DNA from: Escherichia coli O157:H7
GTDB lineage: Bacteria > Pseudomonadota > Gammaproteobacteria > Enterobacterales > Enterobacteriaceae
Assembly: GCF_013167455.1 (NCBI RefSeq)
Contig: NZ_CP038329.1
Direction: 5' to 3' (one strand)
Length of the DNA stretch: 1,538 nucleotides
Part shown: one piece after another, positions 1 through 1,518 of the stretch
Numbering within the stretch: position 1 is the first letter of the stretch
Layout of the letters: every line of letters begins with the position of its first letter
The notes under the pieces: model-generated
Database searches by the model: none
What the model was told of the DNA's origin: nothing
Seen by the model: the letters and a program-made list of their open reading frames with translations, nothing else
Translations under genes and position numbers: made by a program

Positions 1-1
1 A

Positions 2-457
2 CGACTGAAACAACTTTCAGATGAGGCAAAGAAAAACACCGAGGATCTCGAAGAAGCAAAGAAGAATTCAAGGTTTACACAGGTATCCCCAAAAGGTTGG
101 GAACGCGTTCGAGAGCTGCTGAAGGATAGCCAAGGCATATCAGCACTGAAGCTGTACTCATTTTTAGCGGAGCATATCGATCCTACGTGTGGCGCTGTCG
201 TTGCGGATCAGCAATTCCTAGCTGAAAAACTTGGAGTTAGCAGAAGCACAATTATTCGGTGGCTCAATTACTTAGAATCAAAAAATGCATTAGTTAGAAT
301 CCCCGTTGCTGGTAAGGTTTGTGCGTATGCCCTCGATCCACATGAAGTCTGGAAGGGATACAACACTACGAAAAACCATGCAGCGTTTGTCACTAAAACA
401 CTGGTCAACAAAGACGGTGATATTCAGCGCCGAATCATGGCCATGTTTTCAAATTGA
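2..457 (+). CDS. 3' portion (152 codons) of a putative plasmid replication protein, RepL-like winged helix-turn-helix; 5' end lies outside the window
   Basis: Frame 2 is open from position 2 to the TGA at 455-457 (translated by hand: ...SQGISALKLYSFLAEHIDPTCGAVVADQQFLAEKLGVSRSTIIRWLNYLESKNALVRIPVAGKVCAYALDPHEVWKGY...MAMFSN*). The segment LAEKLGVSRSTIIRWLNYLE is a typical HTH; the overall pattern (LKLY..FL...D...V.A...LA...GVS..TI...L..LE..N.LVR....G.....L(D/N)P(H/E)...(K/R)G) parallels staphylococcal pSN2 RepL as I remember it. It is missing from the supplied ORF track only because no start codon lies within the window. Product assignment is from memory, not a search. Confidence 0.6.
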   Translation, partial: RLKQLSDEAKKNTEDLEEAKKNSRFTQVSPKGWERVRELLKDSQGISALKLYSFLAEHIDPTCGAVVADQQFLAEKLGVSRSTIIRWLNYLESKNALVRIPVAGKVCAYALDPHEVWKGYNTTKNHAAFVTKTLVNKDGDIQRRIMAMFSN

Positions 458-589
458 GCCAGCGGCAGGCGGACAATCAGGGGCTACGTGTTAACGTTTT
501 GACCATGATTGTCTATCCTGCATTGCTCTTTTGCCGCCTCAAAATCCCTTGCGTGTTTTTGCTCCCCGATCCCCAGAACGACCGCGCCG

Positions 590-860
590 CCACGGTTCCG
601 GCTGCGCCTTGAGCGCAACCGGAAACCGTCTGGGGAGAACCCCAGACCCCCATCGCTGTAACACCGACGGTCTACGACCACCAACCAGCCGAATAGCTGC
701 CTGTGCCGTGCAAATAGGCTTTGCAGGGAGCTGACGCGGTTCCTGGCGACCTGAAAGCCCCTGGTTAGGGGTATCGGCGCGCCTGACCTCCTGAGAGCCT
801 CTGTAAGCGTTTTTCGCGCCTTCCATGCCCTGGCGGGCATTTAAACCCGTTTCGTGCGTC
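590..860 (+). other. ColE1/pMB1-type replication origin region: 3' half of an RNAII-like pre-primer and predicted RNA-to-DNA switch point near ~815-835; diverged and apparently lacking the 5' RNAII/RNAI region
   Basis: By-eye collinear similarity to the pBR322 origin region as recalled: GGGAGCT at 726-732 lies ~100 nt upstream of CCATG (826-830), as GGGAGCT lies ~115 nt upstream of CCTATGG at the pBR322 origin. On the minus strand, gaaaaacgcttacagaggctctcaggaggtcaggcg resembles caaaaatcgacgctcaagtcagaggtggcg and gataccc..ccagg resembles gataccaggcg. Order and orientation agree with the bom and pas-like blocks. No RNAI-like three-stem-loop element or terminator was seen at 260-560. Confidence 0.4.
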
Positions 861-920
861 TGAGAGCTTCTGAGCGTGTTTGAAGGGCTATCTGACGACT
901 CATCCCCGAAAGAACAACAA

Positions 921-954
921 CGGGATCACCGACAACATGCGAGAGGTGATCCCG
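921..954. repeat. Hairpin, 10-bp perfect arms cgggatcacc / ggtgatcccg with a 14-nt loop, positional counterpart of the GTTATCC...GGATAAC hairpin of pBR322
   Basis: Arms 921-930 and 945-954 are exact reverse complements. It lies immediately origin-proximal to the pas-like block, as the DnaA-box hairpin does in pBR322 (from memory). Confidence 0.5.
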
Positions 955-1010
955 CTCGCCGCAAGTCGATGACCGAGCGTAGCGAGCGAATCGACGAGGA
1001 AGCGGAAGAG
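952..1010 (-). promoter_or_regulatory. ColE1-type primosome assembly site (pas / n'-site)-like conserved block between origin and bom
   Basis: Minus strand reads ctcttccgcttcctcg tcgattcgctcgctacgctcggtcatcgacttgcggcgagcgg, against pBR322 ~2345-2403 (recalled) ctcttccgcttcctcg ctcactgactcgctgcgctcggtcgttcggctgcggcgagcgg. The first 16 nt and the terminal tgcggcgagcgg are identical. The functional label as a PriA-dependent site is from memory of ColE1 literature. Confidence 0.5.
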
Positions 1011-1046
1011 AACCGGAAGTTACATTGAGCACTTACGCACGGATGC

Positions 1047-1071
1047 GGGGTGTCGGGGTGAAGCCCTGACC
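1047..1071 (+). repeat. Inverted second copy of the 25-bp bom arm (ggggtgtcggggtgaagccctgacc)
   Basis: The reverse complement of 1265-1289 is ggggtgtcggggcgaagccctgacc, matching 1047-1071 at 24 of 25 positions. The two copies are inverted and 193 bp apart. Similarity to bom stops right after the repeat (aagtgggg here versus cagtcacg in bom). Confidence 0.75.
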
Positions 1072-1076
1072 AAGTG

Positions 1077-1114
1077 GGGAATGTCTGAGTGCGCGTGCGC
1101 GGTCAGACATTCCC
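1077..1114. repeat. Hairpin with 12-bp perfect stem (gggaatgtctga / tcagacattccc) and 14-nt alternating purine-pyrimidine loop (gtgcgcgtgcgcgg)
   Basis: Arms 1077-1088 and 1103-1114 are exact reverse complements. The loop 1089-1102 is two tandem gtgcgc units. It sits just inside the inverted bom-arm copy. Function unknown; a single-strand initiation site or relaxosome accessory site is a guess. Confidence 0.5.
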
Positions 1115-1228
1115 ACATCCTGTCCCGATTTCTGAGGCGTTTTAACGGTGAACGGACGGCAAAAACATGATCGAGCGTGGAGAGCGCGAAATCGGGCAAA
1201 ATCACGGCTGACGAGGCTTGCAGAGGAG

Positions 1229-1289
1229 TAAGCCAGTATACACTCCGCTATCGCTACGTGACTGGGTCAGGGCTTCGCCCCGACACCCC
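1229..1289 (-). other. ColE1/pMB1-family bom (oriT) including the conserved nic region
   Basis: Minus strand reads ggggtgtcggggcgaagccctgacccagtcacgtagcgatagcggagtgtatactggctta, against pBR322 bom (recalled) gggtgtcggggcgcagccatgacccagtcacgtagcgatagcggagtgtatactggctta. About 58 of 61 positions match by eye, including an identical 41-nt run tgacccagtcacgtagcgatagcggagtgtatactggctta. By analogy with ColE1, where I recall nicking mapped to CTGG/CTTA, the nick would fall on the minus strand between plus coordinates 1233 and 1232. Confidence 0.8.
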
Positions 1290-1291
1290 AA

Positions 1292-1320
1292 AAGGGCGTT
1301 GCGTTGCGCGCAACGCCCTT
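1292..1320 (-). terminator. GC-rich hairpin (aagggcgttgcg / cgcaacgccctt, 5-nt loop) abutting the bom arm; candidate intrinsic terminator for leftward transcription
   Basis: 12-bp perfect inverted repeat, 1292-1303 and 1309-1320. On the minus strand the GC stem is followed by TTTTGGGG, a short U-tract. On the plus strand no T-run follows directly, so the minus orientation is more plausible. It also coincides with the GC-rich to AT-rich junction. Confidence 0.35.
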
Positions 1321-1384
1321 GCCTAGAATAGATCTTTTACGCCGATTTGTAAGTTGTTGTTTTTTTAGTGTGTTTTTTGTTTAC

Positions 1385-1453
1385 CTGTCGCATCCAGGGT
1401 GACACAACGTTGTCGCATCCTGGATGCGACAACACGCAACAAGGTGTTGCACA
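1385..1453. promoter_or_regulatory. Operator-like cluster of palindromes upstream of the 1519 gene
   Basis: A 23-bp perfect palindrome at 1410-1432 (ttgtcgcatcc t ggatgcgacaa). A third copy of the arm in direct orientation at 1385-1398 (ctgtcgcatccagg). A 10-bp palindrome acaacgttgt at 1404-1413. A gcaac-N5-gttgc dyad at 1436-1450 overlapping a possible -35 hexamer. Confidence 0.45.
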
Positions 1454-1476
1454 GATGTGTCATGATGGCTTAGATT
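1447..1476 (+). promoter_or_regulatory. Candidate sigma70-type promoter (-35 ttgcac 1447-1452; -10 tagatt 1471-1476, 18-bp spacer) for the downstream gene
   Basis: Hexamer matches only (ttgcac vs TTGACA, tagatt vs TATAAT). An alternative -35 ttgaac at 1476-1481 lacks a good -10. Weak and unverified. Confidence 0.2.
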
Positions 1477-1518
1477 TGAACCAACGTTAGTGCATGGGAT
1501 TTTCAGAGGGAAAAAATC

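Follow-up and report, generated by a model that had tools for sequence, protein, structure and literature searches.

The 1,538-nucleotide stretch of Escherichia coli O157:H7 DNA analysed here (the window) is a complete circular plasmid of the already well-known pKL1 / Col(MG828) family. The best explanation of its organisation, to which we assign a probability of roughly 0.78, is that this pKL1-family plasmid encodes RepA only and is a minimal relaxase-less hitchhiker of the pOriT kind, with a compact cis-acting transfer module at 952-1289. It has the pKL1-type RepA and the upstream repeats at 1386-1433 that mark the pKL1 / Col(MG828) family, and, as in other pOriTs, a complete circle carries at least one oriT, no relaxase and no mating-pair genes. 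Judged from its sequence, the plasmid probably depends for any spread on conjugation proteins that other plasmids provide.

The window is an entire pKL1-family replicon

Megablast comparison of the 1538 bases with 72,556 plasmid records returned complete circular plasmid records of 1538-1552 bp, each spanning the whole window (100%) with an identity of 98.6-99.9%. The best records are complete 1538-bp plasmids with 100% coverage and 99.9% identity. The match is rotated between records, i.e., circularly permuted, and these full-length rotated matches to complete circular plasmids show that the window represents the entire replicon. In PLSDB, the replicon type of these records is Col(MG828), and MOB-suite types the matching records as 'mobilizable' with no relaxase listed. 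Plasmid pKL1 (NC_002145, 1549 bp, from E. coli KL4) is a member of the same family. At least 80% of the window is present in 290 of 5,426 complete E. coli genomes (~5%).

A preliminary description of this DNA had named a 'rep-like gene' and an 'unrelated + strand gene' as two flanking genes. Both turned out to be the ends of one repA gene that is split by the linearisation of the circle. The replication features of the window are:

1519-1538, + strand: first 20 nt of repA, with the ATG at 1519; the gene runs on at position 1
1-456, + strand: rest of repA with the stop codon at 454-456, from translation across the junction
1386-1433, no strand assigned: TGTCGCATCC repeats, direct as well as inverted, preceding repA; they presumably represent the oriV region and operator with the sites bound by RepA

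In records that begin at the repA ATG, the sequence from position 21 onward aligns to window 1-1518. Translation across the linearisation point yields a RepA of 158 aa, which is identical to the RepA of pKL1 and pJD8 (WP_000469298.1) and carries the Pfam domain HTH_36 (E=3.5e-8). According to published work, the oriV of pKL1 precedes rep and has binding sites for Rep as well as a perfect inverted repeat (PMC3832669), and the repeats at 1386-1433 would fit this description of the oriV and its RepA sites.

The 158-aa RepA is the longest ORF in the window, and for the other ORFs of at least 30 aa no NCBIfam match was obtained, in agreement with the earlier statement that no mob reading frame is visible. 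The NCBIfam searches that gave nothing include those with the four longest non-RepA ORFs, all on the minus strand (484-840, 539-826, 841-1032, and 1020-1205). The region 457-1518 is regarded here as non-coding, despite a 'rep protein' or 'replication protein' annotation in some records; these annotations lie on the minus strand within 457-950. This segment of 0.5 kb has a GC content of 58%, compared with 43.5% in repA, contains no credible gene, and is ~92% invariant within the family. Parts of it are common to unrelated 2-5-kb plasmids, and ~135 bp are also found in a 30-kb plasmid. A promoter scan returned 0 promoters, and terminator-like sites numbered 2 against 2.0 expected.

Scanned in full against Rfam at permissive settings, the window showed neither RNAI nor RNAII, and the sole match was a chance hit to mir-9461 (E=0.79) over the RepA-operator palindromes. 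As a control, the same RNAI model detects RNAI in ColE1 at 73.8 bits. Since RNAI and RNAII were not detected, the plasmid is not a ColE1-type replicon. A mob-deleted ColE1 derivative was ruled out: there is no RNAI/RNAII, and the replicon is unrelated and depends on the HTH_36 RepA.

A ColE1-type bom on a plasmid without a relaxase

The module at 952-1289 consists of three parts, namely the ssi homologue at 952-1010, the R64-type oriT at 1046-1135 on the plus strand and the bom at 1229-1289 on the minus strand. These parts and the elements within them are:

952-1010, + strand: ssi/pas homologue of ColE1, 83% identical to ColE1 1309-1367
1046-1135, + strand: relaxase-less R64/I-complex-type oriT (oriT_pKL1 type), IncK2/Z-like allele; predicted nick on the + strand
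1047-1075 and 1261-1289, no strand assigned: 29-nt inverted repeat, 93% complementary, from the repeat search; brackets the double-oriT module
1052-1070, + strand: 8-bp inverted repeat GTCGGGGT gaa GCCCTGAC (arms 1052-1059 and 1063-1070), from the alignment
1077-1114, + strand: 18-nt inverted repeat (repeat A; arms 1077-1094 and 1097-1114), from the repeat search; presumed NikA binding and specificity site
1115-1127, + strand: R64-type nick region ACATCCTG/TCCCG, invariant in R64, IncK2/Z and 7 family members
1229-1289, - strand: ColE1-type oriT (bom), the kind of site targeted by MOBP5-HEN relaxosomes; predicted nick on the minus strand

The alignment of window 1229-1288 with ColE1 (NC_001371) 1462-1521 is gap-free and has 59/60 identities (E=5e-25), which bears out the earlier assignment of a ColE1-type bom to 1229-1289. 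In a blastn search of window 1200-1320 against the 72,556 plasmid records, 4,776 records share the bom block, and 4,390 of these are typed mobilizable. The shared block almost always extends from query 27-32 to 89-93, i.e., from window 1226-1231 to 1288-1292, and because the alignments almost always end there, 1229-1289 are the true limits of the conserved block. In CP123679.1, a 5.3-kb ColE1-like plasmid that is typed MOBP and encodes MobC, MbeB, and MbeD, the block is 100% identical to window 1229-1292. The window being the whole replicon, a relaxase elsewhere on the same replicon is excluded, and the bom is an orphan, as the preliminary description had proposed.

The nick in ColE1 is said to have been located by Varsaki et al. 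in 2003 at 5'-(1469)CTGG/CTTA(1462)-3'. The ColE1 record reads TAAGCCAG at 1462-1469, corresponding to window 1229-1236. From the ColE1 nick position and the alignment, we infer that the minus strand is nicked between 1233 and 1232 (5'-CTGG/CTTA-3', 1236 down to 1229). Around this position the homology comprises 56 nt on the 5' side and merely 4 nt on the 3' side, which is the usual layout for recognition by a relaxase.

Were this orphan bom the sole transfer determinant, the plasmid would need ColE1-family Mob proteins in trans together with a conjugative channel. Plasmids with bom but without mob genes, such as pBR322, are mobilised in trans, and this behaviour is textbook knowledge; moreover, the bom of the window differs from that of ColE1 at one of 60 positions and is identical to the bom of a Mob-encoding plasmid. 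Nevertheless, we consider it unlikely that bom is the sole determinant, because a complete R64-type oriT, the very one catalogued for pKL1, is present at 1046-1135, and orphan R64-like oriTs function with R64 alone. The earlier view that the plasmid would be mobilisable only by ColE1-family Mob proteins cannot be upheld with an R64/I-complex-type oriT located ~110 bp away.

An R64/I-complex-type oriT next to bom

In a blastn search with window 940-1230, the segment 1046-1132 showed 94% identity over 86 bp to non-coding DNA in large MPF_I conjugative plasmids. In two large MPF_I plasmids that match 1046-1132, this DNA is located directly upstream of nikA and the relaxase gene, and the pKL1 allele likewise has its match upstream of nikA in a third plasmid, typed IncK2/Z. 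When the window is aligned with the R64 DNA upstream of nikA, the 8-bp repeat, the long repeat and the nick region follow each other in identical order and at identical spacing. Across R64, IncK2/Z and all members of the family, the 8-bp inverted repeat shows few differences or none. The minimal oriT of R64 consists of one 17-bp and one 8-bp inverted repeat, and the 17-bp repeats differ among I-complex plasmids, being part of the NikA site (PMC3817090).

Folding of 1040-1135 as single-stranded DNA resulted in two hairpins (z = -4.8). The sequence CACATCCTG/TCCCG is found at 1116-1127 on the plus strand. Taken together with this homology, the R64 nick bond reportedly described by Furuya and Komano in 1991 would place the R64-type nick of the window between G1122 and T1123, 8 nt after repeat A.

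Neither nikA nor nikB lies beside the R64-type oriT of the window, and the 1538-bp replicon contains neither gene. The missing nikA-nikB makes this oriT an orphan copy; by analogy with pEC156, its working in trans would not be prevented. The oriT catalogued for pKL1 is the R64-type one. This oriT_pKL1 is included in the collection of experimentally validated oriTs of Ares-Arroyo et al. (PMC10123127) and has been placed in the oriT_R64 family (bioRxiv 10.1101/2024.01.30.577996). The repeat allele of the window differs from that of the validated pKL1 oriT, and the window's allele is predicted to be active as well.

The two origins are arranged head to head

The left arm of the 29-nt inverted repeat (1047-1075) aligns to ColE1 1494-1521 with 25/28 identities in inverse orientation. 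The 29-nt box, GGGGTGTCGGGG-GAAGCCCTGACC, is thus common to R64- and ColE1-type oriTs, and it holds the 8-bp inverted repeat. Since the shared box is present as an inverted repeat, the two oriTs are oriented head to head, with the nick sites facing inward and the boxes outward. The predicted nick sites are ~110 bp apart and on opposite strands. The shared box also accounts for the published observation that oriT_ColE1 and oriT_R64, though 'unrelated', fall into one cluster below 70% identity and coverage (bioRxiv 10.1101/2024.01.30.577996).

The 29-nt box also resembles the CloDF13 oriT sequence GTGGGTGGTCGGGCGTGAGCCTGAC (CloDF13 9745-9785). The nic published for CloDF13, GGGTG/GTCGGG, falls inside GTGGGTGGTCGGGCGTGAGCCTGAC. 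Comparison of CloDF13 GGGTGGTCGGG with window GGGTGTCGGGG gave no significant BLAST alignment, and the likeness is one seen by eye only; as a speculation, it could reflect common ancestry or a third nicking target.

In ColE1, RNAI is located at 645-749 on the minus strand. This position puts the ColE1 origin near 1194, so that ColE1 1309-1367, the counterpart of window 952-1010, lies 115-173 nt downstream of the origin. This is the location at which plasmids of the ColE1 family carry their single-strand initiation site (ssi), the role of which has been described (PMC5935869). The ColE1 order of ssi followed by bom is kept in the window, with the I-complex oriT in between. Window 941-1040 additionally matches non-coding DNA of many 42-170-kb conjugative plasmids at 77-79% identity, and sequence related to the ssi/pas-like element is also present in many ColE1-like plasmids. 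The element thus seems to be a priming signal common to a wide range of plasmids.

The ssi homologue raises the question of whether 940-1290 instead serves vegetative replication (lagging-strand priming, termination) or multimer resolution, its likeness to oriTs being incidental. The homology of 952-1010 to a ColE1 ssi used in replication would agree with such a role, as would the non-coding, inverted-repeat-rich nature of the segment. However, the matches are exact oriT cores with both nick sequences and not generic hairpins, the same sequence occupies the oriT position upstream of nikA in large plasmids, and oriT_pKL1 is listed as experimentally validated. We therefore regard a pure replication or resolution function as extremely improbable and favour the interpretation of 952-1289 as a transfer module.

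Three further observations concern the surroundings of the two nick sites. ColE1-family homology stops at 1226-1231, 1-4 nt from the predicted nic between 1232 and 1233, a position consistent with the view that relaxase-mediated recombination at nic brought in the ssi-bom segment. Eight bp (CTGTTGAA) are absent at ~1176 (between 1175 and 1177) from the window and the other 1538-bp records and present in the 1546-1552-bp relatives; the site of this difference is the spacer separating the two oriTs. Directly to the right of bom, 1292-1320 contains an inverted repeat whose 12-bp stem is perfect and whose loop measures 5 nt (AAGGGCGTTGCG / CGCAACGCCCTT), which is kept in the RepA-type relatives and replaced in NZ_CP055036 and NZ_CP101865.

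Nick regions are conserved and the NikA-site repeat is hypervariable

For the analysis of variation, seven family members, two of them with a different Rep protein, were aligned over 940-1300. Among five whole-plasmid sequences, 91.5% of the columns are invariant overall. Invariant columns make up 100% of the R64-type nick region, 97% of the ColE1 bom, 93% of the 8-bp box, and 45% of the NikA-site repeat. None of the seven aligned members has lost either nick region, even where the Rep protein is a different one. With a shallow family and a background of 91.5%, the 97% of bom is by itself weak evidence for selection.

These data bear on the possibility that bom is a non-working recombination scar, left when an ssi-bom segment was joined to a pKL1-type replicon at nic, with the R64-type oriT alone in use. 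The homology indeed ends 1-4 nt from the predicted nic, where relaxase-mediated recombination would put the junction, ssi and bom keep the colinear order of ColE1, and bom conservation is not clearly above the family background. On the other hand, the 56 nt on the 5' side of nic are intact and 98-100% identical to functional plasmids, and bom is retained in the seven aligned members with either Rep. A homology that ends just past nic is also expected of a functional oriT, since recognition takes place on the 5' side. A scar is, in our opinion, an improbable explanation, and we prefer to count bom as part of the transfer module together with the R64-type oriT.

No other stretch of the plasmid is as variable as the NikA-site repeat (1077-1114). 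This repeat occurs as three alleles, each of which still forms a hairpin. The window allele is 94% identical to IncK2/Z-type plasmids, the pKL1 allele is 92% identical to a different IncK2/Z plasmid, and the third allele resembles R64 itself. One plasmid shows 91% identity to the pKL1 allele but only 76% to the window allele. This pattern suggests that the repeat alleles have been exchanged to match different helpers.

Two of the family members deserve mention for their typing. NZ_CP055036 (1506 bp) and NZ_CP101865 (1597 bp) are called 'non-mobilizable' by MOB-suite, yet both have a nic block of the ColE1 type as well as the R64-type nick region. They encode a different protein of 146 aa that replaces the pKL1-type RepA. 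The unrelated plasmid pLAO79 (NZ_OP242288, 1541 bp) apparently contains two inverted copies of an R64-type oriT, at 198-389 on the minus strand and at 1309-1397 on the plus strand, which are 77-78% identical to that of the window. BLAST with the module gave no match in pLAO79 to the window's ColE1-type nic block.

Possible transfer routes and helpers

According to Ares-Arroyo et al. 2023, pOriTs rely on either pCONJ or pMOB helpers, and more than one oriT is found in ~12% of oriT-bearing E. coli plasmids (PMC10123127). For the plasmid described here, two routes can be envisaged. In the first, a co-resident I-complex conjugative plasmid (IncK/B/O/Z for the window allele) would supply NikA, which would bind the 18-nt repeat, and the relaxase NikB, which would cut the plus strand at CATCCTG/T. 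The helper's own coupling protein and pilus would then export the strand, so that one helper would suffice. In the second route, a co-resident ColE1-family plasmid would supply MbeA, MbeB, and MbeC, the minus strand would be cut at CTGG/CTTA, and a second plasmid, any compatible conjugative one, would provide the mating channel; two helpers would thus be required. More speculatively, the ssi homologue may prime synthesis of the complementary strand.

Cognate helpers are common. An IncK2/Z-type nikA-oriT query is covered to at least 80% in 472 of 5,426 complete E. coli genomes, with at least 99% identity in 265 records, and there are thousands of ColE1-family plasmids with the bom block. In SCU-482, which harbours a 99.9%-identical plasmid, two co-resident records were checked, namely an IncF conjugative plasmid and a Col156 plasmid typed MOBQ. 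Neither belongs to the I-complex, which indicates that the plasmid persists without its best helper. By accession proximity, Ecol_732 appears to hold both the 1549-bp family member NZ_CP015143 and the IncK/B/O-type nikA-oriT plasmid NZ_CP015141.

A more far-reaching interpretation is that the pKL1 family represents a minimal 'multi-helper' hitchhiker, which would be served by two unrelated relaxosomes, could be transferred from either strand, and would carry NikA-repeat alleles that track I-complex lineages. These alleles would be IncK2/Z-like, of a second IncK2/Z-like type and IncI1-like, while the nick region and bom would stay fixed. The shared box could in that case be an ancestral relaxosome or termination element or a third entry point. 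We put this idea forward tentatively, judging it more probably wrong than right, and found no statement of it in the searchable literature. The reading that we prefer remains the more restricted one of a relaxase-less pOriT with a compact transfer module.

Significance

The bom is genuine, and features of its kind were known before. Both relaxase-less oriT plasmids and the oriT of pKL1 have been described previously, so the general picture is unchanged. The present work contributes two points: the two oriTs are arranged head to head, and the NikA-site alleles are hypervariable within the family. A ColE1-type bom in the pKL1 family, or an allelic NikA-site repeat, was not found stated in the searchable literature, the scope of which did not extend to the original pKL1 paper. 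Possession of two borrowed transfer origins explains the wide spread of a plasmid with a single gene. The family is usually dismissed as 'cryptic, only repA' despite its presence in ~5% of complete E. coli genomes, and it offers a very small natural system for the study of how hitchhikers choose and switch their helpers. For annotation pipelines, the lesson is that 'no relaxase' should not mean non-mobilisable.

Comparison with known systems

The closest relatives of the window are the 1.5-kb cryptic Col(MG828) plasmids pKL1, pG-EA11, pSF301-1, pJJ1886_1, and pJD8, with which it shares the architecture and both nick motifs. Plasmids of this group have been described as 'cryptic, only encode repA' and as 'no-MOB'. 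The window differs from pKL1 in its NikA-site repeat, which is IncK2/Z-like whereas that of pKL1 is a distinct allele, and from the 1546-1549-bp relatives in the 8-bp deletion between the oriTs.

Vectors of the pBR322 type carry the ColE1/pMB1 bom, lack mob, and cannot be mobilised unless Mob proteins are provided in trans. These vectors were derived artificially from a ColE1-like plasmid by deletion, whereas the bom of the window resides on an unrelated RepA replicon beside an I-complex oriT. Among natural plasmids, pSe-Kan and pKPN2 resemble the window in combining an orphan ColE1-type oriT with a second oriT of another family, and neither has a mob operon. They differ from the window in having an F-type second oriT, a ColE1-like replicon and cargo genes. 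In pSe-Kan, the orphan ColE-type oriT accompanies an F-type oriT, and with IncP tra functions only the ColE-type oriT supported no transfer, as expected without Mob proteins (PMC9282650).

Plasmid pEC156 is likewise small and relaxase-less and has two different borrowed oriTs, one of them of the R64 type. In contrast to the window, it has a ColE1-type replicon, an F-type second oriT, a larger size and a restriction-modification system. Both F and R64drd11 mobilised the mob-less pEC156, one of whose oriTs is F-like and the other R64-like, and transfer was abolished once both oriT loci had been deleted (PMC4743918). In the same study, pKPN2 was not mobilised by R64drd11, i.e., some orphan R64-like oriTs fail (PMC4743918).

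With the oriT of R64 itself (IncI1, NikA/NikB, MOBP12) and its IncK/B/O/Z variants, the window shares the order of the repeats, their spacing and the nick region. Unlike R64, it has no adjacent nikA/nikB, and its repeat differs, being closest to IncK2/Z at 94%. The NTP16 / pCERC7 / pU302S group, which has an R64-like oriT and its own nikA but no nikB, is comparable in its use of an I-complex relaxase in trans. These plasmids keep their own NikA, whereas the window plasmid has none and must therefore match the NikA of its helper, which fits the allelic variation of the repeat.
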